Of a stretch of DNA of 64,000 bases, positions 15,860 through 37,414 are shown piece by piece. Made by a program: the position numbers and the translations under genes. The number at the start of each line of letters is the position of its first letter. Position 1 is the stretch's first letter. The stretch is from Clostridia bacterium (lineage in GTDB: Bacteria; Bacillota; Clostridia; Oscillospirales; RGIG5299), in NCBI GenBank assembly GCA_017504945.1, contig JAFVQJ010000015.1:40842-104841 (forward strand), given 5' to 3'. Below the pieces are notes generated by a model, which did no database searches, had not been told where the DNA came from, and worked only from the letters and a program-made list of their open reading frames with translations.

Positions 15860-18331
15860 ATGAAAAAAACGGTTGCAGTTGTATTGGCTCTTATCCTCAT
15901 TGCCGTTACTGCGTCTGCGGTCTTTACGGGCTGTTCCAATGGGAAAGTTGGATTCAAGGGAAGTCTTACCGTTGCGCTTGACTCAAACGGTAAATACACC
16001 TCGGTAAAGTCCGGCGGCAAGGAGCTAATAACCCAAAGCGGAGCGGGCGGCTTCTTTATCTATAATTTTGAAGACAGAAGCTATTATGAAATGACGGAGG
16101 TCTCCGTTTCCAAAAAGGGAAGCAGCTACACCGTTTCGGGAAGCAACTCCGAGCTCGGAGCAACCCTTAACGCAACTCTTGAACAGAAAAACGGCGCCGT
16201 TATAGTAAAGGGCACGGTGAAGGATACCACCGGTAACGACCGCCGCTTCAGAGTAGAGCATTCACTTCCGATTGATGCAAACGGCTGGCGCTACGGCATT
16301 GATCTTAACAGCTCCGACGAGATAAAAGGAAAAAACGTATTTGCAAACCGCCACACCGTTTTAACCAAGATCTATCAGGCAAACTACCCCTTTGCTTCGA
16401 TATCGAACGACGAAACGGGTATAGCGGCAACCAACTTGTTTGATTCGCCCGTCGTTTACGATTATTGTTACGATAACGAGGCAAAGCTTTTTACCCAGTC
16501 CTTCTATATGGGACTTTCCTCACAGACCAAAAACCCCTCGGAGGGAAGCTTCTCCTTCGCGCTTTACGATTTCAAGGGCTATCACGGCTTCAGAGGCGCG
16601 GCTGACGGAATGTATAAGATCGTTCCCGAGGCGTTTGAAACAAAAGCAGAGGAGCATGGCAACTGGCTTTTCCAGCAAAACGCCTACTATAACCTCAACG
16701 GTGTAGAGGACTACCTCGGAATCTTCAACGAATCTCCCAACTATATATTCGATAATAAATACGGCGTAGCCTCGGCAAAATACGTTGCTCCCGCCGAGAT
16801 ATGGATCTCGTGGTACGACTATGACGGCCCCAACGCCGTTCCCACTGCGGCAGAGCTCAAGAGCAAGCTTGAAAAAATGCTTACGATGCCCGAGTCGGCA
16901 AAGGATATGTACGATAACGTATCTCAAAAGGATATTGCGTCGGCGATTTTCAGCAGTGGCTATTATATAAACAAGAATAACGATTACTGGAACGCGGGCT
17001 GGAACTCCTCTTACTCGAAGATAATGGCATTTATTGCAAACGGCAATCCCAATATTCCCGCCCCGAGCAACTACAGCATTCACCGTCAGATATTCAACGA
17101 CGAGGAGGCAAAAGCGGCATCGGAGGGATACAAGGTAACGGGTCTGTATATTGATAACGCCAACTACGGCTCACTTTCAAATCTCGATTACAATACCGCA
17201 AACTATAAATACAGCAGCTATCCTCTTCTTTGGGATAATTCCGGCACCCTTGCGCTTCCCTTGGGCTACTGCACTTGGGAGTTTATCGATGCCTTTACCG
17301 CAGAGGAAAGCGATAAGATATCTCTCGGAAACATCGCATTCCCCGATAACGGAAGCGCAACCGCGCTTGCTCATTTCTTTGATATCCCCGGCGGCGAGAT
17401 AGGAAACTCGTGGGGACAGACCGACGAGGAGTTTATGCTTCGTCGCGTAAACGCCTACCAAAAGCCTTGGGCACTCCTTCTTACTCAAAACTTCAACGAC
17501 GTTTTTGAAGGCGTTGTTGACAAAAACGAAGCAAACTATAAATCAAAAGAGCTTTTGATGAAACGCTCCCTTTTCTGGGGCGTTATGTGCAACGCTATGA
17601 CTTTGACCGCAGATACTGCGGCGCTTGAAAGCGTAAGACCGCTCTTTATAAAATACGGCACGGCTCAAAAGCTCGTTTCGGAAGCTGGCTGGGAACCGAT
17701 AACCCACGCCGTTCCCACCTCAAACGCAATAAGCTGTGAGAGATTCGGCGGCAACGGCAACGAGGCGGTTTGGTTTACCGTAAGAGCAAACCGCGACGGC
17801 GCCGAAAATGAGGGAATATACGTTCCGCTTCCCAATCTCGGCTTCAAAAAAGGCGATTATAACAAGCTTATTGCATTCGATGTTGTTGCAAATAAAATGC
17901 TTGACGTAGTTGTCGAAGGCGACATAATGACCGTCAAGACAGAGCTTTCCGAAACAGACGACGTTGCGGCGGTAATAATCGGCACTCCCGCGCAGATAGC
18001 GGCAGCACTCAAAGATGAAAACGCCACGGCAGCCAAACGCATAGAGGAAAAGCTTTCGGAACTTGAAAAGCTTGCCGACAAAAAGACCTCCGATCCCGCT
18101 GAGGTAATAGCTGAAATCAAGGAAATGAAAAAGGCAAATGCCGCATTCCTTAAAGCGGTAAATAAAGGCGATTTCGCAAAGGCGGCAGCCGAGCTTGAAA
18201 CGGTAACGAGCCTCTCGCAGAGCTTTATCGACCAAAAGACCTTCGGCGCGGTGGAGGGCAAGGCAATTCAAACCGAGCTTACCGCAGTTGCCGAAAGATA
18301 TATGAACAGATATAAAGCGTTATCGAAATAA
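15860..18331 (+). CDS. Large hypothetical lipoprotein
   Basis: Signal peptide with a lipobox (VFTGC). The protein is 823 aa with an alanine/lysine-rich helical C-terminal tail. No catalytic motif was recognised. Confidence 0.55.
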   Translation: MKKTVAVVLALILIAVTASAVFTGCSNGKVGFKGSLTVALDSNGKYTSVKSGGKELITQSGAGGFFIYNFEDRSYYEMTEVSVSKKGSSYTVSGSNSELGATLNATLEQKNGAVIVKGTVKDTTGNDRRFRVEHSLPIDANGWRYGIDLNSSDEIKGKNVFANRHTVLTKIYQANYPFASISNDETGIAATNLFDSPVVYDYCYDNEAKLFTQSFYMGLSSQTKNPSEGSFSFALYDFKGYHGFRGAADGMYKIVPEAFETKAEEHGNWLFQQNAYYNLNGVEDYLGIFNESPNYIFDNKYGVASAKYVAPAEIWISWYDYDGPNAVPTAAELKSKLEKMLTMPESAKDMYDNVSQKDIASAIFSSGYYINKNNDYWNAGWNSSYSKIMAFIANGNPNIPAPSNYSIHRQIFNDEEAKAASEGYKVTGLYIDNANYGSLSNLDYNTANYKYSSYPLLWDNSGTLALPLGYCTWEFIDAFTAEESDKISLGNIAFPDNGSATALAHFFDIPGGEIGNSWGQTDEEFMLRRVNAYQKPWALLLTQNFNDVFEGVVDKNEANYKSKELLMKRSLFWGVMCNAMTLTADTAALESVRPLFIKYGTAQKLVSEAGWEPITHAVPTSNAISCERFGGNGNEAVWFTVRANRDGAENEGIYVPLPNLGFKKGDYNKLIAFDVVANKMLDVVVEGDIMTVKTELSETDDVAAVIIGTPAQIAAALKDENATAAKRIEEKLSELEKLADKKTSDPAEVIAEIKEMKKANAAFLKAVNKGDFAKAAAELETVTSLSQSFIDQKTFGAVEGKAIQTELTAVAERYMNRYKALSK

Positions 18332-18373
18332 AACGCTTAATATAATGAAAAAATATATAAAGGAGCAAAAATA

Positions 18374-20044
18374 ATGAAAAAGATAATTGCAACAGTCTTG
18401 GCACTTGTCCTTTGTCTTGGGCTTCTTTCCGCCTGCACGGGCGGCGGAAGTCAGAGGATACCCTACGATTACGGCGATGGCTTTAAGCCCTATTCACCCG
18501 AAATAACGATAAGCGTTGCCAATCCCATGGCAGAAGACCTTGTGGCTTATCTCACCGAAAAGGGCGACAATCAGGAAAACAACGCTTGGAACAGGCTTTA
18601 CCGCGAAAAGTTGGGCATTAAGATAAGATACGATTCTGCTTTCGGTATGCTCGGCGGCTACACCGAGAAGCTCTCGGCTGCAAGCATGGCAGATAACTTC
18701 CCTGATCTCGCGTATCTCGGAAGCGGCGAATTTGCCTACACCCTCATAAAGAATATGTATGAAAGAGATCAGCTTGCCGACCTCACCGACGCTATTGAAA
18801 AGCTTGCGTCCGACGATCTCAAAAACGCCTTCGAGGTTGCAGGCGATGAGATCTTCTATCCTGCCACCTTCAACGGCAAGAAATTTGCGATTCCGCAGAT
18901 AATCGGCGCGGAAAACGAGGCGTATACCTATTATTTCCTCAGAAAAGACTGGCTTGATAACTTGAATCTCGCGATTCCCTCCACCTTTGAGGAGCTTCTC
19001 TCGGTCTGTGAGGCGTTTGCAAATCAGGATCCCGACGGAAACGGTGAGGACGATACCTACGGTCTTTCCTTCGGCGGCGACTTCAGAGAGACGGGCTCAC
19101 TCTTCTTTGCGGCATACGGAGCATATCCCGGTCAGTGGATAAAGAGTGAGGACGGAAGCAAGCTCGTTTACGGCTCTTACACCGAAAACACCAAGAGAGC
19201 TATTGCACAGCTTCACGAGATGTATAAGAGCGGCGCTCTTAATCCTGCCTTCAACGAGACCGGCTTCGACGGACTCTACACTGAGTTCAACACCGGTAAA
19301 GCAGGCGTTTTCATGGGTAAGGTATATTATCCCTTCCTCCTTGAAAACCTCGTTATGAGAAACCCCGATGCAGAGATAGTTGCCGTTAAGGCAATGGCGG
19401 CAGACGGCGGTGAGGTAAAGATAATGACTCCCACCAACGCGGCGGCGTATTTCGTAATGAATGCGAAATGCAACTATCCCGAGGCAATGGTAAAGATGTT
19501 TAACCTCTACCTTGAGACCAGCTTGAATCCCGAGTCGGAGGAACAGTATTACGAGCTTATAGCCGACAAGGATACCGGTAAGAATATCTGGACTATGTCA
19601 CCCGTCAAGACCGCTATTCCCGGTGAAAACGCCAGAAAGGCAAACATAGTTGTCGAGGCACTTCTCGAAGGCACAAAGGAAAATCTTCTTCCTCATCAGG
19701 TAGCTCTTTACGATCAGGTAGTTCAGTTTGAGGAGAGAGGCACCAAATCCCTCTACGGCGACTGGATGCTCTGGAAGGAAGGCGGCACCGAGTCCACCAT
19801 TCAGGAGTATTTCGATAACGAATGGTTTATGCCCATCAACTTCAACGGCGCAAAGACCGAAAGTATGCAGCTTTACGGCGACGATCTTTACAGCGGCGAG
19901 GTCGGCGGCTTTATCCTTATGATAATGGGTGAAAATCCCATCGACAGCTTCGACACAATGTACGACGCCTGGAAGGATATCGGCGGCGCCGACGTTGAAA
20001 GAGAGATCAACGAGTGGTACAGCACCGTCAGAGCGCAGAACTGA
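18374..20044 (+). CDS. ABC transporter extracellular solute-binding lipoprotein (large family-1 type)
   Basis: Lipobox LLSAC, ~556 aa, and sequence character typical of the large sugar/oligosaccharide-binding proteins. No permease or ATPase genes are adjacent. Confidence 0.7.
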   Translation: MKKIIATVLALVLCLGLLSACTGGGSQRIPYDYGDGFKPYSPEITISVANPMAEDLVAYLTEKGDNQENNAWNRLYREKLGIKIRYDSAFGMLGGYTEKLSAASMADNFPDLAYLGSGEFAYTLIKNMYERDQLADLTDAIEKLASDDLKNAFEVAGDEIFYPATFNGKKFAIPQIIGAENEAYTYYFLRKDWLDNLNLAIPSTFEELLSVCEAFANQDPDGNGEDDTYGLSFGGDFRETGSLFFAAYGAYPGQWIKSEDGSKLVYGSYTENTKRAIAQLHEMYKSGALNPAFNETGFDGLYTEFNTGKAGVFMGKVYYPFLLENLVMRNPDAEIVAVKAMAADGGEVKIMTPTNAAAYFVMNAKCNYPEAMVKMFNLYLETSLNPESEEQYYELIADKDTGKNIWTMSPVKTAIPGENARKANIVVEALLEGTKENLLPHQVALYDQVVQFEERGTKSLYGDWMLWKEGGTESTIQEYFDNEWFMPINFNGAKTESMQLYGDDLYSGEVGGFILMIMGENPIDSFDTMYDAWKDIGGADVEREINEWYSTVRAQN

Positions 20045-20142: not shown

Positions 20143-20979
20143 ATGAAAAGGGTACTGACAGAAACGGAATTGGAGAAATTTGAAGGATATCTGCTCAAAG
20201 AGGAAAAAAGCCTGCGCACAGTGGAAAAATATCTGCGCGACGTCGGGCGGTTTATCACCTTTGCAAACGGCAGGGAAATAGAAAAAAGCACGGTAATTGC
20301 CTATAAAACCATGCTCGAGAAAAGCTATGCCGTTTCGAGTGCAAACACAATGCTTGCCGCCCTGAACGGCTTTTTTCGCTTTATGGAGTGGCATGATCTC
20401 ACGGTAAAGCAGTTTAAATTTCAAAACAGAAGCTTTTGCCCGCAGGACAAGGAGCTTTCGAGAGAAGAATATGCGCGTCTCGTAACAACGGCGCTAAAAC
20501 AGGGGAACGAGCGTCTTTCACTCATTCTGCAGACCGTGTGCAGCACGGGCATACGCATAAGCGAGCTTGAATACATAACCGCCGAAACGGTAAGGCGCGG
20601 CGAGACGGTTGTAAGCTGCAAGGGTAAAAAACGCGTTATCCTGCTCGTGCCCGATCTTCAGAAAAAGCTTGAAAGATACGTTCGCAAAAACGGGATAGAA
20701 GGAAAGCTTTTCGTAACGAATAGCGGAAAGCCCGTTTGCCGCACGAACGTCTGGCGAGAGATGAAGCGTCTTGCCGCCGACGCCGACGTGCCCGAGAATA
20801 AGGTCTTTCCGCACAATTTAAGGCATCTCTTTGCCCGAACCTTCTATTCAATGGATAAGGATATAGTCAAGCTTGCCGACATTTTGGGGCATACCAACAT
20901 AAATACCACGCGAATATACACCGTTACAACTGCCGACGAATACAAAAAGAAGATGGAGGAGATGATGCTGATAATATAA
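20143..20979 (+). CDS. Tyrosine site-specific recombinase (XerC/D- or RecV-like), candidate invertase for the adjacent switch
   Basis: An N-terminal SAM-like domain (LRTVEKYLRDVGRFITF) is followed by a catalytic domain with the STGIRISEL (Arg), HNLRHLFA (His-x-x-Arg) and GHTNINTTRIYT (His...Tyr) motifs. ATG 20143 follows a GGAGG RBS, and an extended -10 (TGtTATAAT) lies at 20107-20115. Confidence 0.85.
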   Translation: MKRVLTETELEKFEGYLLKEEKSLRTVEKYLRDVGRFITFANGREIEKSTVIAYKTMLEKSYAVSSANTMLAALNGFFRFMEWHDLTVKQFKFQNRSFCPQDKELSREEYARLVTTALKQGNERLSLILQTVCSTGIRISELEYITAETVRRGETVVSCKGKKRVILLVPDLQKKLERYVRKNGIEGKLFVTNSGKPVCRTNVWREMKRLAADADVPENKVFPHNLRHLFARTFYSMDKDIVKLADILGHTNINTTRIYTVTTADEYKKKMEEMMLII

Positions 20980-21010: not shown

Positions 21011-21032
21011 TAAATCAAAGATCCTTGGTCGA

Positions 21033-21164
21033 TTAATCCCAGCCGTTTTCGCCGGTAATGTAGTTTCCTTCGTTTTCACCCTCGGTAGTGGGGATAGAAA
21101 CGGTGATAACGTCTTCGATAGCAAAAAGCTCAAATTCGATTTCAGGTGTAGTATATTTTTTCAT
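21033..21164 (-). CDS. Conserved 43-aa acidic small protein (copy A), downstream of variant A
   Basis: My translation gives MKKYTTPEIEFELFAIEDVITVSIPTTEGENEGNYITGENGWD. It is preceded by AAAGGAGAT. It is below the track's length cut-off. A near-identical copy lies at 26654-26785. Confidence 0.5.
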   Translation of the reverse strand: MKKYTTPEIEFELFAIEDVITVSIPTTEGENEGNYITGENGWD

Positions 21165-21583
21165 TTTATTTATCTCCTTTCACCGAATTATGCGTTCATA
21201 GCATCGTTGATGCTTATAGCACGGAGACCACCGTAGGTGATGGTGCCGTCAGCATACTCAACGTAGCTTACTGCAAGGAAGATTCTGCTGAGCTGATCCT
21301 CGGGAATACCGATAAGAACTGCGGTAAAGGAGATCGAGTCGTCGGTCTTCTCGTAGTAGTTCTTTGCAACGATATCAAGGTAAGAGGTGCCGTCGATCTT
21401 GCCGTCTTGAGTATGACCGAGATAACCGCCGGTTACCTTGTCTGCGGGCATGATGATGGTGCCCATCTTTACGATAGAATCGTTGTTGTTAACGCTGTTA
21501 AGAGCAACGGTGGTCTTGAAACGAAGACCTGCTGCTACCTTCTCGGAAGGTGCTCTCCACTGTACAACGGGAGTGGTAGCCTT
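21033..21583. repeat. Outer inverted repeat, arm A (3' constant region of variant A plus the small ORF)
   Basis: This is the reverse complement of 26235-26785. I counted about 10 mismatches in the ~400 nt of the large gene that I aligned by eye. The mirror-image spurious ORFs in the track (21407..22129 + and 26097..26465 -) share the same peptide, which confirms the repeat. Confidence 0.85.
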
Positions 21584-23707
21584 GTTCTCGGTTTCGTTGT
21601 AATAAGCATCTGCACCTTCGTATTTACCGGCGGTTATACCGTTGATTGCTTTGAATTCTGCGGTAGCACCGCTGGTGCCGTAGCCGGTCTGACCGACTAT
21701 AACGTAAGCCTGATTGTTCTCATCAAGAACGTTGGTTACATTGAATTCGTAATCAACGTATGCGCCGGTGGGCTCTTCGGTCTCGGGATCGATCTCTTCA
21801 ATCTGAAGTGCTGCGCCGTTAAGATAGATCTTAACGTATTTATTACCGTCAACCTCGTAAACGTCGCCTACCGAGAAGGTGTTATCAACGTCGTTGGACC
21901 AAGCGTTAGTGAAGGCTATGGCGCCTACAACACCGGATCCGTAGATAACGTTATCGCCGCCGACGTGGATAGCAAGAGCAGTTGCGGGGTTGCAATCGGG
22001 GAAATAGGTATTGACGGACATCTGGAGGCTGTACGTAGTGGGCTTGGTTGCGCTCAAGATGAAATCGGTGTGAGCGTTAGGAGAGGAAAAGGTATTAGCG
22101 GTTTTGTTTATAACTATCTCAAGTCTTGATGCGAAGAGCTTCTCGTTATAAACAACGCCTGCCTGACCCCAGTTTCCGGTATTACTGTTGAGTTTGATTA
22201 TACCGTTGGGCTTATAAGAAACGATGCCGCCGGGAGTGGTTGCGTCTGCCATCCAAGGAGCGAGAACCGTCCAGTTAGAATCTGCGGGATCAAACTCAGC
22301 GGGAACCTCTAACCAAAGACCATAATTATTGGGAACAAAACCGCTGATATCAGAAATGATGTAGGTTCCGGTGGTATTGCCGCCATAGGTAGAAGCACCG
22401 AAGCCGAGAACCGCAATACCGTCTACAGAAAAGATAGATGCGGCATTTGCGAAGGTGTAGATAAGAGTGCCGTTAGCATAAAGATTAACGTCTGCACCGT
22501 CAATGCTGAATATGAAAGAGTTTACGTCGTTTACTTTGATGGCACTTACTACCTTATCTGCAAGAGATACACCGGAGTTAACACATGCGCCGTTAACATA
22601 AGTGTAGAGAAGTATCTGGTTGGCCAGATTGTTAACAAGTCTGAACTCAATGCTGTCACCGTTGGTAGTCTGAACGCAAGAACCGGCAGCGGTTGAAGGA
22701 ACAGTTGTGTTAGCTGCGGTAGAAAGCATTACCGAGAAGTTCTGGAAGCAGGTGCCTGCATCCTTGCCCGTATCATCGGTAAGAGCTTGATTAGGAACAA
22801 AGATATCAAGAGAAATGTTATTGCCCGAATCGAATGCAACACCCTTTAAAGAACTGATAGCTGCGCCCGACCATGCACCGGCGCCTATGGAAAGGGTACC
22901 GTCTGCGTTGATTGCTGCTGTTGCATTGTTTGCAGCAGAAGTATTCCAAGTGGGCTCAACGTAAGTATAAGCCTCGTAATCTGCAACAGAGTCGTCGTTA
23001 GAAACTATTTTGAAGTTTCTGAAGGAGGGCATATTGTTCCAGTCGCCGCAGTCGCCGTTGGAGCCAAGAACAACGTATTTGCCGGTTGCATTTTCGGGAG
23101 TATAGGCGTTGCAAACAAGAACGTCGTTTACCCACATAGAAACAACACCGTTTGCTACAACGACCTTAACGGTATTCCAATCGCCGGATTCGATACCGAT
23201 GATAGAATAGGGAGATGCTGCACAAGCAACTGCTTTTGCAGAAGTGTCAAAAAGTTCTACTACATTGTAGGTGCCCCAAGCAGCGTAGTTATCGGGGGTG
23301 CCTGCTGCCGTACCCTCGTAGTTGGCGAGTTTTACAGACATAGCGCCTGTCCAGTTTTTGTCTGCGCCGTCGGGGTATACACCCATAACGCCTACTACGG
23401 GAACACCGTTAGTAGTACTTGCGCTCTGGGTTGCGGGGACGTATGCTTCAACAGTAATAGTGTAGTTATTGTTGTAAGCAGAGGCATCATAAAGTGCGCC
23501 GAGGTTTGCAAAAGGAACCTCAGGATTGCCCCAACCCATAGAGAGAGAACCGTCAGCGTTTACTTTGAAGTTAGATGCGCTTGCGCCGCCGGTAGCGGTG
23601 TGCTCCCAACCGTCAGCAACTGCTGCCGATGCCATGGGGATTGCTGCAAATGCGAGAGGCAATATCATGATTATTGCGACCGCAATGCAAAGGAGTTTTC
23701 TTTTCAT
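21188..23707 (-). CDS. Secreted multi-domain beta-sandwich (LamG/concanavalin-like lectin-type) protein, variant A
   Basis: 839 aa. The signal peptide MKRKLLCIAVAIIMILPLAFAAIPMASAA is identical to that of variant B. Repeated modules of the type W..V.V.V.NG.V..W.ND look like LamG/DUF1080-type modules, but this is from memory and weak. The C-terminal ~130 aa are nearly identical to variant B. Confidence 0.8.
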   Translation of the reverse strand: MKRKLLCIAVAIIMILPLAFAAIPMASAAVADGWEHTATGGASASNFKVNADGSLSMGWGNPEVPFANLGALYDASAYNNNYTITVEAYVPATQSASTTNGVPVVGVMGVYPDGADKNWTGAMSVKLANYEGTAAGTPDNYAAWGTYNVVELFDTSAKAVACAASPYSIIGIESGDWNTVKVVVANGVVSMWVNDVLVCNAYTPENATGKYVVLGSNGDCGDWNNMPSFRNFKIVSNDDSVADYEAYTYVEPTWNTSAANNATAAINADGTLSIGAGAWSGAAISSLKGVAFDSGNNISLDIFVPNQALTDDTGKDAGTCFQNFSVMLSTAANTTVPSTAAGSCVQTTNGDSIEFRLVNNLANQILLYTYVNGACVNSGVSLADKVVSAIKVNDVNSFIFSIDGADVNLYANGTLIYTFANAASIFSVDGIAVLGFGASTYGGNTTGTYIISDISGFVPNNYGLWLEVPAEFDPADSNWTVLAPWMADATTPGGIVSYKPNGIIKLNSNTGNWGQAGVVYNEKLFASRLEIVINKTANTFSSPNAHTDFILSATKPTTYSLQMSVNTYFPDCNPATALAIHVGGDNVIYGSGVVGAIAFTNAWSNDVDNTFSVGDVYEVDGNKYVKIYLNGAALQIEEIDPETEEPTGAYVDYEFNVTNVLDENNQAYVIVGQTGYGTSGATAEFKAINGITAGKYEGADAYYNETENKATTPVVQWRAPSEKVAAGLRFKTTVALNSVNNNDSIVKMGTIIMPADKVTGGYLGHTQDGKIDGTSYLDIVAKNYYEKTDDSISFTAVLIGIPEDQLSRIFLAVSYVEYADGTITYGGLRAISINDAMNA

Positions 23708-23791
23708 GGTTTTTTTCCTTTCTTAATAATAAAATTTTTTTAATTTAGTTTACTTAAACGGTCGACAAATACAACATAATGAACATTATGT
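23621..23791. repeat. Inner inverted repeat, left arm (signal-peptide codons + 5' UTR + recombination core)
   Basis: 171 bp that is the reverse complement of 24154-24323 with a single 1-nt indel (A4 vs A3 at ~23731). Identity stops exactly at the end of the palindromic core (23791). Confidence 0.9.
23774..23791 (+). other. Candidate recombination core site L (ACATAATG-AA-CATTATGT)
   Basis: This near-palindrome sits at the inner end of the left IR arm. The context acaACATAATGAACATTATGTatc has the central TGAACA in the same orientation as site M and opposite to site R. Confidence 0.6.
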
Positions 23792-23806
23792 ATCAAAAAA
23801 ACCGTG

Positions 23807-23836
23807 AAAAAAAACAAAAACCACCCTCTCGGGTGG
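23807..23836 (-). terminator. Unidirectional (leftward-acting) terminator inside the invertible segment
   Basis: Hairpin CCACCC-tctc-GGGTGG (23821-23836). On the minus strand it is followed by TTTTTGTTTT. On the plus strand no T-run follows, so it should stop only transcription heading toward variant A. Confidence 0.55.
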
Positions 23837-23846
23837 CGAAAAGAAA

Positions 23847-23864
23847 ACATAATGAACATTATGT
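23847..23864 (+). other. Candidate recombination core site M (third, internal copy)
   Basis: aaaACATAATGAACATTATGTtgc has the same 18-bp core and the same orientation as site L. It lies 73 bp to the right of L, on the other side of the terminator. Confidence 0.55.
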
Positions 23865-23867
23865 TGC

Positions 23868-23896
23868 TTGAAAAAATACCGTTTTCGCCCTATTAT
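23868..23896 (+). promoter_or_regulatory. Promoter-like element, rightward (TTGAAA-N17-TATTAT)
   Basis: The hexamers and 17-nt spacing were read directly. The region is AT-rich, so the false-positive risk is high. Confidence 0.3.
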
Positions 23897-23907
23897 ATAT
23901 AAAAAAC

Positions 23908-23936
23908 ATTATAATATAGGTGCCTCCTCGCGACAA
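23908..23936 (-). promoter_or_regulatory. Promoter-like element, leftward (TTGTCG-N17-TATAAT on the minus strand)
   Basis: In plus-strand coordinates the -35 is at 23931-23936 and the -10 at 23908-23913. Transcripts from here would hit the 23807-23836 terminator before reaching variant A. Confidence 0.3.
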
Positions 23937-24087
23937 ATTTATAAATCCTCCCTTGAAATCCTCGAAAGCCGCACCACAGCTTGCTTTGCAGACCTTTTTT
24001 GCCGTTAAAATTTAAAAACTTTTGTCGATTTATACAAAAAATACACCTAAATTGACAATATTTTCTATAAAAAATAAAAATAAAGGC

Positions 24088-24116
24088 TTGCATTTTCCCT
24101 CTTGTTATGGTAAAAT
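24088..24116 (+). promoter_or_regulatory. Best sigma-70-type promoter in the switch, currently facing variant B (TTGCAT-N17-TGgTAAAAT)
   Basis: The -35 TTGCAT is at 24088-24093, followed by a 17-nt spacer and an extended -10 with TGG at 24108-24110 and TAAAAT at 24111-24116. It lies inside the invertible segment, 35 bp from site R. Confidence 0.5.
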
Positions 24117-24153
24117 AAAGTGAAATTTAGTTTATTTAATATGAATTCATACA

Positions 24154-24171
24154 ACATAATGTTCATTATGT
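24154..24171 (-). other. Candidate recombination core site R (ACATAATG-TT-CATTATGT, inverted relative to L and M)
   Basis: With flanks it forms a perfect 24-bp palindrome except for the central dinucleotide: ACAACATAATG-TT-CATTATGTTGT (24151-24174). It sits at the inner end of the right IR arm. Confidence 0.6.
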
Positions 24172-24323
24172 TGTATTTGTCGACCGTTTAAGTAAACTAA
24201 ATTAAAAAAATTTATTATTAAGAAAGGAAAAAAACCATGAAAAGAAAACTCCTTTGCATTGCGGTCGCAATAATCATGATATTGCCTCTCGCATTTGCAG
24301 CAATCCCCATGGCATCGGCAGCA
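24154..24323. repeat. Inner inverted repeat, right arm
   Basis: It is the partner of 23621-23791 and covers the core site, the 5' UTR, the RBS (AAGAAAGGAAAAAAACC ATG) and the first 29 codons of variant B. Confidence 0.9.
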
Positions 24324-26630
24324 TCGGTTAAGTATATTTCTTCTGATTTTTCTTATCCCGCCGATATAAATGGAATTGCAATCAACTCAGACGGCTCTAT
24401 GGGCGTTAGCTATGGTACACATGCTGAAAACGGTGTAAACTCTTACGTTGACTTTGTTGGCACCGCAAATCTTGGCAATAGCTACACCGTAGAGGTTGAT
24501 GTTCGTCTTGCAGAACAGATGCAGTATGCAGCTGCTATCGGCTTGGGTGCAAGTGATTCTTGGGTAGGTGCAGGCTTGGTTGTTAAGCTCGGTAATAACG
24601 GTAATAATTATCTTGAACTTTACGACAACGCTCTTGCTCCCTTGACTCCCGCTGTTGCTTCTGCAGCAGACTTCAACATGCGCACTTACAGCGAAGGCTT
24701 TAACACCGTAAAGTTCGTTGTAGAAAACAACGTTGTTGACCTTTATATCAACGACGTTCTTGTTCTCGCAGATTATGCGATGACTCCCATCGGCGGCTAT
24801 CTCGCTCTCGGTGTAAACGGAGATGCCGGAAACAAATACGTTCCTGTAACCTACAAAAATCTTAAGGTTACCAACGGCGAAGGAACCAAAAGCTATCTTG
24901 ATCAGCCTTTGAATTGGAACTTACAGGATCTCCAGGGAATAGGCGGAGCCTCCGATATGGCTGCTGCAGACCGTATTAATCCCAGCACCTATGTTTTGAA
25001 TAAAACAAACGGCTCTTTCGGAATTTATTCAAATGCATGGTCCGGATCGATCATTTCCTCTAAAAAGGCATTGGATATCAGCTCTGCCATTACGACAGAG
25101 GTGGTTATCGGCAATATGCCTTACGAAGCAACTGCCGGTCATGGAGCAAATCCCGCACAGTGCCACTCTATCGTTTTATCTGCATCGTCTCCCTCTATCA
25201 TTGCTAATGCATTTGCAGAATCGACCGTATACAGCGGTATAGAGGTTAAATTCATTAAAGATGTAGACGGAAATATCGACGTCTATTTTATGGAAAACGG
25301 AGCATTGAAGCTTCTGTCAGAAAACTTGTTCGTTCCCGGTGACGTAGTAACCTTTGCCTTCAAAAATAACGGCACCGATATTGCGGTATATGCCGCCAAG
25401 GGCAACGAAGCAGAAGCATTGCTTTATACATATGCAAATGCAGCTGGCAATTTCGCAGGATATGCATTTTTGGCTTACACCGCACAGACGTATGGCGGCG
25501 CAGTAACAAATGAAATGACCGTAAATAAAGTAAATGGCGTTGCAGCACTGGATTACGCAGGCGGTATTGTACCTGTAGAAGTCAAAGACGGTTGGAGCGA
25601 TGCTTTTGAAGCAGCATTTAACGCAAGTCAGAACGTACAGTGCGGTCAGGGTACTGTTGTTTTCAGTGCCAACGGTGAAATGAATCTCATTTCCGGTGAT
25701 GGTTGGTTTGGACATGCGGGAACCGCATTGGTTGAGAAAGTAGCTCTTTCCGGTTTGTCACTTGTCGTTGACATTTCCGGATTTACAATTAATGAACACA
25801 ATTTCGTCATATCTCTTACCAAGGCTCCCATTAGTGCAGCAGAATCTGCTGGAAGTTTCTGGTCTATTCCCGCATACGATAAGACCGCAACTACCAGCGA
25901 TCTCGGCTTGTTCTTCGATAAAAACGGAGGAATCGTAACCTGGTATGGACGTAATGACTGCGCACAGGGTGCCTTTGAAATCGGAGAGGACGCTAAATTT
26001 ACCGTAAAGTTTGGCGAGCCTTATGCTGACGGCGAAAAGACACTTGTTAAGCTGTATGTAAACGGCGCAGAAATCAGATCGTACGATATAACCGATTTAT
26101 TGGACGAGGACGGTAAGGTATACCTTTCTACCGGAGTTACCGGATATGGAAATACCGGTTGTTCTGCAAAAGTTATCAGCGTAAACGGTGTTACTGCAGG
26201 TCTTTATGACGGTGCAGCTACCTACACCGATCACAAGGCTACCACTCCCGTTGTACAGTGGAGAGCACCTTCCGAGAAAGTAGCAGCAGGTCTTCGTTTC
26301 AAGACCACCGTTGCTCTTAACGGCGTTAACAACAACGATTCTATCGTAAAGATGGGCACCATCATCATGCCCGCAGACAAGGTAACCGGCGGTTATCTCG
26401 GTCATACTCAAGACGGCAAGATCGACGGCACCTCTTACCTTGATATCGTTGCAAAGAACTACCACGAGAAGACCGACGACTCGATCTCCTTCACCGCAGT
26501 TCTTATCGGTATTCCCGAGGATCAGCTTGATAGAATCTTCCTTGCAGTAAGCTACGTTGAGTATGCTGACGGCACCATCACCTACGGTGGTCTCCGTGCT
26601 GTAAGCATCAACGATGCCATGAACGCATAA
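24237..26630 (+). CDS. Secreted multi-domain beta-sandwich (LamG/concanavalin-like lectin-type) protein, variant B
   Basis: 797 aa. The first 29 aa are identical to variant A. The central ~640 aa are only distantly similar to variant A, although the architecture is the same. The last ~130 aa (TTPVVQWRAPSEKVAAGLRFKTTVALN...GGLRAxSINDAMNA) are nearly identical. Confidence 0.8.
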   Translation: MKRKLLCIAVAIIMILPLAFAAIPMASAASVKYISSDFSYPADINGIAINSDGSMGVSYGTHAENGVNSYVDFVGTANLGNSYTVEVDVRLAEQMQYAAAIGLGASDSWVGAGLVVKLGNNGNNYLELYDNALAPLTPAVASAADFNMRTYSEGFNTVKFVVENNVVDLYINDVLVLADYAMTPIGGYLALGVNGDAGNKYVPVTYKNLKVTNGEGTKSYLDQPLNWNLQDLQGIGGASDMAAADRINPSTYVLNKTNGSFGIYSNAWSGSIISSKKALDISSAITTEVVIGNMPYEATAGHGANPAQCHSIVLSASSPSIIANAFAESTVYSGIEVKFIKDVDGNIDVYFMENGALKLLSENLFVPGDVVTFAFKNNGTDIAVYAAKGNEAEALLYTYANAAGNFAGYAFLAYTAQTYGGAVTNEMTVNKVNGVAALDYAGGIVPVEVKDGWSDAFEAAFNASQNVQCGQGTVVFSANGEMNLISGDGWFGHAGTALVEKVALSGLSLVVDISGFTINEHNFVISLTKAPISAAESAGSFWSIPAYDKTATTSDLGLFFDKNGGIVTWYGRNDCAQGAFEIGEDAKFTVKFGEPYADGEKTLVKLYVNGAEIRSYDITDLLDEDGKVYLSTGVTGYGNTGCSAKVISVNGVTAGLYDGAATYTDHKATTPVVQWRAPSEKVAAGLRFKTTVALNGVNNNDSIVKMGTIIMPADKVTGGYLGHTQDGKIDGTSYLDIVAKNYHEKTDDSISFTAVLIGIPEDQLDRIFLAVSYVEYADGTITYGGLRAVSINDAMNA

Positions 26631-26785
26631 TTCGGTGAAAGGAGATAAATAAAATGAAAAAATATACTACACCTGAAATCGAATTTGAGCTTTTTGCTAT
26701 CGAGGACGTTATCACCGTTTCCCTTCCTTCTGCTGAGGGTGAAAACGAGGGCGGATACATCACCGGCGAAAACGGTTGGGACTAA
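26235..26785. repeat. Outer inverted repeat, arm B
   Basis: This is the partner of 21033-21583 (see that entry). Confidence 0.85.
26654..26785 (+). CDS. Conserved 43-aa acidic small protein (copy B), downstream of variant B
   Basis: MKKYTTPEIEFELFAIEDVITVSLPSAEGENEGGYITGENGWD, preceded by an AAAGGAGAT RBS. It differs from copy A at 4 of 43 residues. Confidence 0.5.
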   Translation: MKKYTTPEIEFELFAIEDVITVSLPSAEGENEGGYITGENGWD

Positions 26786-26810
26786 TCCACCGATTTAACT
26801 CAATAATTAA

Positions 26811-34910: not shown

Positions 34911-37412
34911 ATGAGAAGACTAAAACGATCACTTGTCTTTCTTACGGTAACCGTAATGCTTTGCGGCTCGCTTCTTTCCTTTGCAACGGCTTATGCAAAT
35001 GAAGCCGTAAACGAAACGGAGCCGTTGATTAGCGAGCCGATCACCGACGTTCCGGCAATAGCGAGTGTAGGCGCAAGCGAGATAGAGAGCGGTAAAATTT
35101 ATCGCATAAAAAATGCAAACAGCGGTCTTTATTTGGCATTGCCGGGAAACGATGCAGATCTTTCAAACATAAACCTTGCCGTAAAAGATAATTCTGCATT
35201 AAATCAACAGTTCAAGATAGTTTATGACGAAACCTACGGCTTTTACCGCATCCATACGATGATGAGCTCGTTTGGCACAAACAGAGTGTTGGATATCTTC
35301 AGCAATCCCAATTCGCCGCCCGCAAACGGAAGAAACGTTCACATTTACGTTATTGAAATAATTGAAAATTTCAACTCTTACGGTTGGCAGATAAGTGACG
35401 TTGGCAACGACAAGGTAAAAATTTGCGCCGATTACAACGAATCACTTGCACTCACCGCCGCCGCGGGAGGAACGGCTGCGGGAACCAACGTTTTGGTAAA
35501 TACCTATAGCGGAGCAGAGCATCAGAAATGGATACTTGAAGAGGTAGTAAGCAACGCCGGCACAAACGCAAACGTCTCGTCACTTGTTGACGGCGGAATA
35601 TACAGAATAAAGGATTTTAGCGGAAATTACCTTACGGTAGCACCTAACACCGCCGGAAATTTCGACGTAACACTGAATAACGTTGAGATGCGTCCTGCCG
35701 TGGCACATTTGTGTCAGGAATTCAAGGTAGAGCTGAACCCCGATGGAAGCTACTATATAAGAGCAATGATCTCGAGCAACGGCACGAACAGGCTTATAGA
35801 CGTTTACAGCTCGAATATAGATCAGATAGTAAACGGAGCAAACGTGCATCTGCATCATCCGGGAGATGAAAACTCGAGCCGATGGAAAATAGAGTATATG
35901 TCTGTTGTGCGCTCTTTTTCAATAAAAATCGCCTGCAAGACAAATCTCGGAATGGCAGTTAGCGGCACCAACGTGCAAATGGCGTCCTTCCACGGCGGCT
36001 TGAGCCAGCAGTGGTTCTTCGAGCCGGTATCGTCAATCGTTTTAATCAATAACGCGCCCACAACGTCACTGCTTACCGGAGAAACCCACCAGCTTACAGA
36101 ATACGTCTATCCTCCGCAAGCCGTTACTTGGTCCTCATCAAATACGTCTGCTGTAAAAGTTGACTCCAACGGCTTGGTTTTTGCCGTAGGTGTAGGACAG
36201 GCAATAATAACCGCAACAACTGCTGCAGGCGATTATGACCAAGTAACAATATCAGTGTTACAGCCTCAAATAGTCCAATATTTAGGAATATATAAATTCA
36301 AAACATCAAACGACAAATATTTATATTCGTATATGGACACTTCAGGCAATCCAATTGTTGGACTCAAGGAGCCGTTAATTGATGATTACGGAAATCTTGT
36401 TGAGGATTCAAGCGTATTATGGGCAATAGCGGAGTTAAATAACGGTTATTATTCTGTTATATCTATGAATACTCGCGCGTACGGTTCACCAACGTACGGA
36501 TATAGCGAATATGCTTTACAATATTCCGAAAACGGCACTGTTTCAGTTGGACCGCTTTATTATTACGCCTCGCAACAATGGGATTTAACCCTTGACTTGG
36601 AGTATTGGGAAGTTTGGTTTGAATGCGTAAACAGTATAAACGGTCTTACAGTCGATAGCGACGATACTGTATCAACGGGAGTTTATTCGGAGTGCTTTGA
36701 CGTTGAAGAGTATGTTCCCTCTTGCTATTTTGGCGGAACGTACACCAGAGGATTAACACAAGTAAACGGAGAAAACCATTTAGACGTTGCGATTTTTATA
36801 AGTGAAGATATCCTTAATGGCTTGAATATTTCATATACACCCGTTAGCTATAACTATGCAACCGAAACGGCAACCTTCACGGAAATTCCGTATTATAGCT
36901 TTCTGAAAGAATGGGCTAAATTTACGGATAACCTTACAATTAAGATTTATCCGTATGACCCGGATGACTTAAATGAATATAGTGTATTAAACCCGTTTTT
37001 GTATTTCGATGATTCATTTTTAGTATTTGTTAATAAGAAACAATATCCTGCATATGGAGTTACGTATGGTTACAATTTGCCGTCAACTGCAAAATACTTC
37101 GAACCAAAAGATAGATTAGAAGGTTTGGATGTTAATATTAATGTTGCTGAAATAGTGCTGAATAATGTGTCAACAAATGGTTATAATTACTTCGAATTAT
37201 CGACGGTTGAACAAAAAGCTGTTTTGACACATGAGTTGGGTCACGCCTTGAAATTGAAACACCCAAACGAGGTAAAATCAGAAATAACTAACAAATTGGT
37301 AGATAAACCGTATTTTATTCCCACTTCTGTGATGAATAATCGTTTATTAAAATCCACTTGCATTCTCACTGCACACGACCACTTGACTTTAAAAGCAAAA
37401 TGGGGGATTTAA
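34911..37412 (+). CDS. Secreted multi-lectin protein with a C-terminal metzincin-like zinc metallopeptidase domain
   Basis: A signal peptide is followed by two ricin-B-like beta-trefoil modules with QxW-type motifs (QQFKI, QKWIL, SRWKI, QQWFF). A Big_2-like Ig domain follows (VTWSSSNTSAVKVDSNGLVFAVGVGQAIITATT). The C-terminal domain carries HELGHALKLKH (37230-37262) and a downstream SVM Met-turn-like motif. Composition drops from ~55-58% GC to ~30% GC near 36240, judged from my counts on sample lines. Confidence 0.75.
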   Translation: MRRLKRSLVFLTVTVMLCGSLLSFATAYANEAVNETEPLISEPITDVPAIASVGASEIESGKIYRIKNANSGLYLALPGNDADLSNINLAVKDNSALNQQFKIVYDETYGFYRIHTMMSSFGTNRVLDIFSNPNSPPANGRNVHIYVIEIIENFNSYGWQISDVGNDKVKICADYNESLALTAAAGGTAAGTNVLVNTYSGAEHQKWILEEVVSNAGTNANVSSLVDGGIYRIKDFSGNYLTVAPNTAGNFDVTLNNVEMRPAVAHLCQEFKVELNPDGSYYIRAMISSNGTNRLIDVYSSNIDQIVNGANVHLHHPGDENSSRWKIEYMSVVRSFSIKIACKTNLGMAVSGTNVQMASFHGGLSQQWFFEPVSSIVLINNAPTTSLLTGETHQLTEYVYPPQAVTWSSSNTSAVKVDSNGLVFAVGVGQAIITATTAAGDYDQVTISVLQPQIVQYLGIYKFKTSNDKYLYSYMDTSGNPIVGLKEPLIDDYGNLVEDSSVLWAIAELNNGYYSVISMNTRAYGSPTYGYSEYALQYSENGTVSVGPLYYYASQQWDLTLDLEYWEVWFECVNSINGLTVDSDDTVSTGVYSECFDVEEYVPSCYFGGTYTRGLTQVNGENHLDVAIFISEDILNGLNISYTPVSYNYATETATFTEIPYYSFLKEWAKFTDNLTIKIYPYDPDDLNEYSVLNPFLYFDDSFLVFVNKKQYPAYGVTYGYNLPSTAKYFEPKDRLEGLDVNINVAEIVLNNVSTNGYNYFELSTVEQKAVLTHELGHALKLKHPNEVKSEITNKLVDKPYFIPTSVMNNRLLKSTCILTAHDHLTLKAKWGI

Positions 37413-37414
37413 TT

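Follow-up and report, generated by a model that had tools for sequence, protein, structure and literature searches.

The stretch analysed here (the window) is the 64,000 nucleotides (nt) taken from contig JAFVQJ010000015.1 of the Clostridia assembly GCA_017504945.1, and all positions refer to this whole stretch. Between two divergent, paralogous genes for secreted proteins, A and B, it carries a short intergenic segment with a promoter and a terminator, bounded by recombination sites. We propose that this segment is a promoter inverton run by an adjacent Xer-like tyrosine recombinase and that it has a third core site, M, in addition to the outer sites L and R, which would allow a cycle of four isomers. 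We give this reading a slightly better than even chance. It draws on the sites themselves, the terminator, the design of a family of related loci, an inversion of the L x R type in the lineage, the conservation of the module and the use of several sites in relatives. From these we infer that M x R inversion occurs here and that the terminator is efficient enough for an off state. The features of the switch and of the genes around it, in base pairs (bp) of the window, are as follows.

20143-20979, plus strand: Xer-like tyrosine recombinase of 278 amino acids (Pfam Phage_integrase), the presumed invertase
21188-23707, minus strand: gene A, secreted protein of 839 amino acids with a DUF1080/LamG-like domain (PF06439)
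23621-23791: left arm of the inner inverted repeat, with the 5' untranslated region (5'UTR), the first 29 codons and site L
23771-23794, plus strand: site L, ACAACATAA-TGAACA-TTATGTATC, outer arm perfect (9/9), inner arm degenerate (6/9); core at 23774-23791, centre AA
23795-23837, minus strand: intrinsic terminator T, with stem-loop 23837-23820 and U-tract 23819-23795, predicted to stop leftward transcription toward gene A
23844-23867, plus strand: site M, AAAACATAA-TGAACA-TTATGTTGC, arms 8/9 and 8/9, direct to L and inverted to R; core at 23847-23864, centre AA
23908-23936, minus strand: promoter-like element P_left, TTGTCG-17-TATAAT, found by the promoter scan, 43 bp from M and facing M and the terminator
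24088-24116, plus strand: predicted main promoter P_right, TTGCAT-17-TGgTAAAAT with an extended -10, 37 bp from R and facing gene B
24151-24174, plus strand: site R, ACAACATAA-TGTTCA-TTATGTTGT, a perfect palindrome except for its centre; core at 24154-24171, centre TT
24154-24323: right arm of the inner inverted repeat
24237-26630, plus strand: gene B, a secreted paralogue of A with 797 amino acids, from domain search and alignment to A

The 18-nt core, ACATAATG-AA/TT-CATTATGT, has three exact copies in the window and none besides L, M and R. This agrees with an earlier note made on this DNA, which had placed L and M in the same orientation and R in the inverted one (centres AA, AA and TT). 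Dinucleotide-preserving shuffles gave a mean of 0.03 core matches and none of the 100 had as many as observed; for the core and the 24-nt pattern together, shuffling gives 0.01-0.03 expected matches. If up to three mismatches to the 9-6-9 pattern ACAACATAA-N6-TTATGTTGT are allowed, just L, M and R match within the window (with 3, 2 and 0 mismatches, respectively), the arms of M being closer to the consensus than those of L. Repeat analysis recovers R as a palindrome of 13+2+13. All three sites are intergenic and enclose only the promoter and the terminator. The centres of L and M are 73 bp apart, about seven helical turns, with 55 bp between their cores. The earlier note had read the pattern of arms as the footprint of past crossovers inside the core, which we do not retain: a crossover exchanges whole half-sites and makes none alike, and the likeness of M to the inner arm of R amounts to two extra bases (TG) in common. 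The arms of L, M and R are alike because they are recombinase half-sites. Judged from its good arms, its identical overlap and the conservation of the module in a relative (L106, below), M looks like a functional site.

The one terminator-like site in 23500-24400 is located within the 55 bp between L and M, in agreement with the earlier note. Its stem of 7 bp (-13.5 kcal/mol) leads into UUUUUGUUUUUUUU. Outward promoter-like elements are present near both ends of the M-R segment, as had been proposed, the leftward one found by the scan and the rightward one by direct reading. P_right has an A/T-rich upstream tract; it was read by eye from the sequence and lies below the scan's -35 threshold, and relatives carry strong promoters at its relative position. 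P_left is roughly retained in a sister strain (L100), with no match at the equivalent place in L106. The promoter scan found no outward promoter in either repeat arm, the 5'UTR common to A and B, and genes A and B therefore depend on the switch. Nothing relevant was found among Rfam families or tandem repeats in 23300-24600. A relic gene start just inside L was also considered: the 18/20 match of AAAAAAACCGTGAAAAAAAA to the start region is a low-complexity A-run that is also the terminator U-tract, and is therefore treated as chance.

The two target genes are arranged symmetrically about the switch. The inner inverted repeat of about 170 bp (125 nt at 98% and 81 nt at 89%, with one 1-nt insertion or deletion in an A/T run) consists of the 5'UTR and first 29 codons of the divergent A and B, and L and R are its inner ends. 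The two proteins have identical signal peptides, near-identical C-terminal regions of about 135 amino acids and diverged middles (40% identity overall). Gene A lies between the recombinase gene and the switch. Within the common 5'UTR, the A/T run (23728-23740 and 24205-24216) varies by a single base, both from arm to arm and from assembly to assembly (A7T3 versus A7T4 in L043-L045, L050, L051 and the window; A8T3 in L100). This difference is a possible marker for phasing isomers and might influence expression.

The recombinase belongs to the tyrosine recombinase superfamily (PF00589, 2.6e-23, and the N-terminal SAM-like PF02899, 1e-08). Its closest solved structure is the XerC-like 4a8e, and the alignment keeps the arginine (GIRISEL), HNLRH, GH and the RIY tyrosine. 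It falls below every NCBIfam Xer equivalog cut-off (XerA, 137.8 bits versus 220; XerD, 123.6 versus 329.6) and does not class as a XerC, XerD or XerA chromosome-dimer resolvase. An extra arm-binding domain is absent from both the Pfam result and the structure alignment. The gene has its own upstream terminator and a TGTTATAAT promoter, and starts at ATG 20143, the mechanically called reading frame having begun at an upstream TTG.

L or M together with R forms a pair of inverted sites around a short segment with an outward promoter, as in an inverton. In the mechanism that we propose, the core sites would comprise 9-bp arms and a 6-bp overlap, ACAACATAA-TGAACA-TTATGTTGT, and the 362 bp between the L and R cores would carry the outward promoter at the R end and the intrinsic terminator at the L end. 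The sequenced state, S1, would have B on. L x R inversion would pass the promoter from B to A (S2, A on) and bring M and the terminator before B, insulating the gene that has lost its promoter. M would be a fully competent core site between terminator and promoter, and since it is inverted relative to R, M x R recombination would flip the 289-bp promoter segment alone. In the product, S3, the promoter would fire into the stationary terminator and B would be without its main promoter. From S2, L x M' recombination would lead to S4, the mirror image of S3, giving an isomer cycle S1-S2-S4-S3-S1. Both genes would be off in S3 and S4; should the weak second promoter be real, expression would instead be low, of B in S3 and of A in S4. 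The earlier note had left the choice between an all-off and an attenuated outcome of M x R; as P_left is not at the equivalent place in L106, off is somewhat likelier than attenuated. The predicted M x R junctions are GGCGAAAAGAAAACATAATGAACATTATGTTGTATGAATTC and TTTTTTCAAGCAACATAATGTTCATTATGTTGTATTTGTCGACC. The reading with four isomers (A on, B on and two off or low) is plausible and unproven.

A further recombination, between L and M, would yield the predicted deletion junction CAAATACAACATAATGAACATTATGTTGCTTGAAAAAATACC. L and M are direct repeats, as the earlier note stated, and the deletion of the terminator that it derived from this is doubtful in cis because the two centres are just 73 bp apart: the minimal loop sizes of Cre and FLP would disfavour an excision loop of this length. 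Cis excision is thus probably disfavoured, and unequal sister-chromosome exchange could still delete or duplicate the cassette, as for the 31-bp tandem units of relatives described below.

The opposite orientation of the segment is found only in L100, a sister strain that later lost gene B. Its flanks are 92-98% identical to the window, and a single gene separates the recombinase from polA. In alignment with the window, these flanks run in minus orientation and segment 23880-24323 in plus. The segment is flipped relative to both flanks, and L100 therefore descends from an A-on isomer. When an L x R inversion and a deletion (from the M-proximal segment end to the end of the second of two open reading frames, ORFs, of 43 amino acids that follow A and B) are simulated on the window, L100 becomes colinear with it at 95.8% over 1096 nt, and the deletion junction falls within the shared GGCGAAAACG. 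The one site left in L100 has two mutations, with the overlap altered (ACATgATGcTCATTATGT), and lacks a partner; the switch is therefore locked on. The recombinase gene of L100 is intact. At 5880-5960 of L100 (same contig as L102), gene B, site M and the terminator have been lost by deletion at a 10-bp microhomology.

In L106, whose polA is 77% identical, two direct cores 73 bp apart lie upstream of the polA-side gene. Between these tandem cores is a strong plus-strand terminator, with a hairpin unrelated in sequence to that of the window. As in L, the outer arm of the outer site is perfect and its inner arm degenerate, and the inner site resembles M; both carry the overlap TGCCCA instead of TGAACA. 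Architecture and spacing thus stay constant as the sequence changes, and the two overlaps have changed together, as would be expected if the sites have to remain recombination partners; a relic would not be expected to show this.

The locus belongs to a large family of promoter invertons in Clostridia, of which very little has been described. At E <= 1e-20, at least 8000 relatives of the recombinase are found, almost all of them about 279 amino acids long and from Clostridia; among the matches listed, the closest non-self ones are about 61% identical. Wherever the context is readable, homologous recombinases (44-61% identity) adjoin inverted 24-nt sites with the same 9-bp arms. The window conforms to this, with a homologous recombinase of about 279 amino acids within a few kb of sites of the form ACAACATAA-N6-TTATGTTGT. 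The 6-bp overlap is locus-specific and uniform among the sites of one locus: TGAACA in L011, L030 and L053, TTTACA in the P0096 loci, CGGAAG in the P0014 loci, CGCCTG in the P0004 loci and TATAAA in the P0034 loci. The segment enclosed in relatives is 200-260 bp long and has a strong promoter at one end. In L030, a 12/12 promoter stands at one segment end and a minus-strand terminator at the opposite end, the design of L-T...P-R here. A terminator at the end opposite the promoter is found in the window, L030 and L106, and weakly in L053. A genome-wide scan with the 18-mer gave 42 matches, mostly chance palindromes, with paired sites and a homologous recombinase only in L011 and L030. A scan of viral contigs gave 12 single matches, none with a homologous recombinase.

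The same module is found beside other kinds of genes. In L054-L070 and L083-L099 it controls operons of very different content, among them clusters of Peptidase_M73 (camelysin/TasA-like) genes on conjugative elements, an Lgt-containing operon beside a Tn916-type integrase and a helicase-like gene. Many short Logan contigs stop exactly at the first site, as expected with both orientations in the sample.

More than two sites for one recombinase are present in the window and also in several relatives, with alternative pairs in use in the relatives L062 and L064. At the P0004 loci there are three sites, two of them in tandem and 33 bp apart; inverting the part of L056 that runs from the inner left site to the right site gives L058 exactly, with no mismatches. 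The P0014 loci, whose recombinase is 59-60% identical to that of the window, have one to three 31-bp tandem units to the left or right of the segment and an identical recombinase throughout. Two inversions in succession, each with a different partner, turn L062 into L064 (0 mismatches in 600 nt), and L063 equals L062 minus one tandem unit. The right-hand unit is the reverse complement of the left-hand unit, which slippage cannot yield. In this system with a 60%-identical recombinase, the opposite site thus recombines with each of the two members of a tandem pair. Three sites are also present in L053 (recombinase 55% identical, same site), where the tandem members are 74 bp apart.

Several observations weigh against the four-isomer cycle. 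The same sequence is found in five independent assemblies (L043, L044, L045, L050/L051 and the window, collected by exact-protein look-ups of the recombinase, gene A and gene B), all of them in state S1; their agreement means that the arrangement is no assembly artefact. No L x R junction, no M x R junction and no L x M deletion is present among these five assemblies of the species, and none of them shows the use of an alternative site pair. The earlier note's account of what L x R and M x R inversion would each move is sound in its logic, with the flipped segment of L100 in favour of the first, and lacks its junctions in the five assemblies for both. A scan of one public metagenome with a state-independent 23-mer did not find the species and gave only the unrelated L052 and the relative L053. 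The M-type site is joined to the same segment end in the window and in L106, which gives no sign of M x R exchange in the past. Both the efficiency of the terminator and the strengths of the promoters are only predicted. In L053, the tandem spacer has no terminator, and a tandem pair may thus serve a role that does not need one. Finally, the conserved 73-74-bp spacing (about seven turns) hints at a structural constraint that a multi-state model does not need. Together with L053, this spacing leaves room for an architectural role of the tandem pair, additional or alternative to the proposed one.

Among the five assemblies, the two contigs of ERZ27256862 (L050 and L051) stop inside the promoter segment, at 23974 and 24028, leaving a 53-bp gap. 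Heterogeneity of isomers was considered as the cause of this break. Simulated k=141 graphs of S1 mixed with each predicted isomer never reproduced the contig ends, and the break is therefore no evidence for heterogeneity. It could reflect a mixture with an L100-like strain.

Of the other explanations, the one that survives best, although we regard it as unlikely, is that M recombines as a neutral by-product: tandem sites would arise and drift by unequal recombinase-mediated exchange, any additional isomers would play no part in regulation, and the working switch would be L x R. Tandem units of relatives do vary between one, two and three and between left and right with an identical recombinase, there is nothing between those units, and a terminator beside the outer site is expected in the family anyway (L030). 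Drift is hard to square with L106, which keeps the site-terminator-site module at the same 73 bp with a different hairpin and a changed overlap in both sites.

A second explanation, to which we give a somewhat smaller chance, makes M a place of binding, with an architectural or regulatory function, and no partner in crossover. A complex of recombinase at L and M, which lie on one face of the helix with A-tract-rich DNA between them, would set the rate or direction of switching or protect L. The spacing speaks for this, being 73, 73 and 74 bp in three loci with unrelated spacer sequences, and other tandem pairs are 31-33 bp apart, about three turns. The terminator-free spacer of L053 and the degenerate inner arm of L in the window and L106 fit as well. 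Binding alone would not need a full site whose overlap is identical to that of its partners and co-varies with them in L106, however, and tandem sites of relatives demonstrably cross over. The recombinase also lacks an extra arm-binding domain.

It is improbable that M x R is the only active pair, a plain on/off switch for B using the fixed terminator, with L just a copy that arose when the 5'UTR was duplicated. Of the three sites, M and R are the best, and in the P0004 relatives the inner tandem site is seen to recombine. Yet the promoter segment of L100 joins directly to the gene nearest the recombinase, across an L/R-type site and without a terminator. Such a junction requires inversion by L x R or by arm x arm, and gene A, otherwise promoterless, is intact in all assemblies. 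That the third copy is a chance match or a decaying, inactive relic is effectively refuted by the 0.01-0.03 matches expected, the exact 18/18 copy and its conservation in L106, and has nothing in its favour beyond the lack of isomers among the five assemblies.

We therefore keep the promoter inverton with three sites as our preferred reading. A more far-reaching version of it, offered tentatively, is a single-recombinase state machine with one promoter, one terminator, three sites, four isomers and three phenotypes (A, B and neither), in which the terminator is a cassette that can be uncoupled from the promoter. The module would be under selection, as suggested by the in-phase 73-bp spacing across species, and this spacing may suppress deletion of the cassette.

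Parts of this arrangement are known from other systems. In fimS of E. coli (summarised in PMC2784873), the tyrosine recombinases FimB and FimE, encoded nearby, invert a short promoter segment between inverted repeats; there are two sites with 9-bp repeats, one target operon and accessory IHF and Lrp sites. fimS thus shares promoter inversion with a nearby recombinase but, unlike the locus here, is not known to have a second target gene or a trapped terminator. The sap locus of Campylobacter fetus has a promoter-bearing invertible segment between opposed paralogues with conserved 5' ends, so that one surface protein is expressed, and its inversion is large and mostly by homologous recombination. 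It resembles the toggle between paralogues here, but is not known to have dedicated core sites or a terminator cassette. One tyrosine recombinase acts on more than two sites to give several isomers in the R64 shufflon (Rci) and in cod/hsdS of S. pneumoniae (PsrA, three repeat pairs). These systems reshuffle coding segments, whereas here a promoter and a terminator would be shuffled.

In vpma of Mycoplasma agalactiae and vsp of M. bovis, Xer1 is encoded beside a locus of paralogous surface-protein genes with a shared 5'UTR and signal peptide, and recombination sites in the 5'UTR, more than two in number, are used in alternative pairs with a single promoter (PMC2268961). In those loci the promoter is fixed and the genes are brought to it; here it is the two genes that are fixed, a small promoter cassette would move from one to the other, and the third site has no gene attached. 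Reassortment of coding segments or whole genes, of the shufflon or vpma type, is not found in the window. The cwpV switch of Clostridioides difficile (RecV) also combines tyrosine-recombinase inversion in Clostridia, an off state by an intrinsic terminator and a surface protein. The invertible region of cwpV, 195 bp with two sites, excludes the promoter, its terminator takes shape in the off transcript alone, and recV lies away from the switch (PMC2784873). In contrast, the promoter here is inside the segment, and the hairpin (23820-23837) is preformed, fixed between two sites and outside the M-R segment.

A 2025 survey of a defined gut community links a Clostridia inverton group (139) statistically to a nearby tyrosine recombinase group (invertase group 35) and gives an example locus with inverted repeats of about 25 bp and a segment of about 206 bp (PMC11892184). 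Group 139 may be the same family as this locus. Like the locus here, recombinase-adjacent Clostridia invertons have a tyrosine recombinase of about 279 amino acids, inverted sites of about 24 nt, a segment of 200-360 bp and a promoter at one end. They differ in having the recombinase followed by an operon, whereas here the switch is between divergent paralogues, gene A is interposed and a third site traps the terminator. In the literature, we found no description of this site sequence or of a three-site or nested promoter-inverton layout.

The genes around the switch have further features. The 3' ends of A and B form a second, outer inverted repeat, and each gene is followed by a small ORF:

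21027-21592 with 26226-26791: outer inverted repeat, 3' ends of A and B and the 43-amino-acid ORFs, 566 nt, 95% complementary
21033-21164, minus strand: 43-amino-acid ORF downstream of gene A, a paralogue of the one at 26654-26785
26654-26785, plus strand: 43-amino-acid ORF downstream of gene B

In every related contig the small ORF is among the called genes. It matches no family, lacks a signal peptide and is probably co-transcribed with the large gene before it. The products are acidic and conserved (MKKYTTPEIEFELFAIEDVITVS...GENGWD), and are also found 3' of the A/B homologues in L100, L101 and L106 (36-43 amino acids as called). The A/B homologues gave eight matches (P0122, P0123, P0125, P0126 and P0128 among them) of 622-869 amino acids, with a common signal peptide and C-terminal domain and differing combinations of middle modules. 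They look like a mosaic, cassette-like family of surface proteins confined to one small set of Clostridia from the ruminant gut. P0124 (L101, 1-420), which is more distantly related to gene A, has a fixed promoter and no recombination site, and is preceded by two GC-rich direct repeats of about 180 bp.

Upstream of the recombinase (15860-20044; 1192-7902 of L102) are genes for proteins of 823 and 556 amino acids without a convincing family match, the former doubled in the sister strain (two copies of 822 amino acids). At 34911-39964, the GC content falls to 0.37-0.38, compared with about 0.47, in a region encoding an 833-amino-acid protein with ricin-type lectin and Big_2 domains and three proteins without a family match. 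This region may be a horizontally acquired surface-protein island.

Two features set the locus apart: the toggle between divergent paralogues, as in vpma/Xer1 and the C. fetus sap locus, and a conserved third site that traps a terminator, of which the literature search found no description. A two-site flip between two genes chooses only A or B. With a third site that parts the promoter and the terminator insulating it, a 'neither' state would become available, with no need for another enzyme or promoter. If true, this would be a new layout of phase variation for the surface proteins of gut anaerobes and a compact natural counterpart of engineered recombinase state machines. More broadly, a very large, portable recombinase-plus-inverton module in Clostridia is now defined, with a 9-6-9 site grammar, isomers in public assemblies and tandem sites that are used, and it provides a concrete handle for finding and predicting invertons outside the Bacteroidota.

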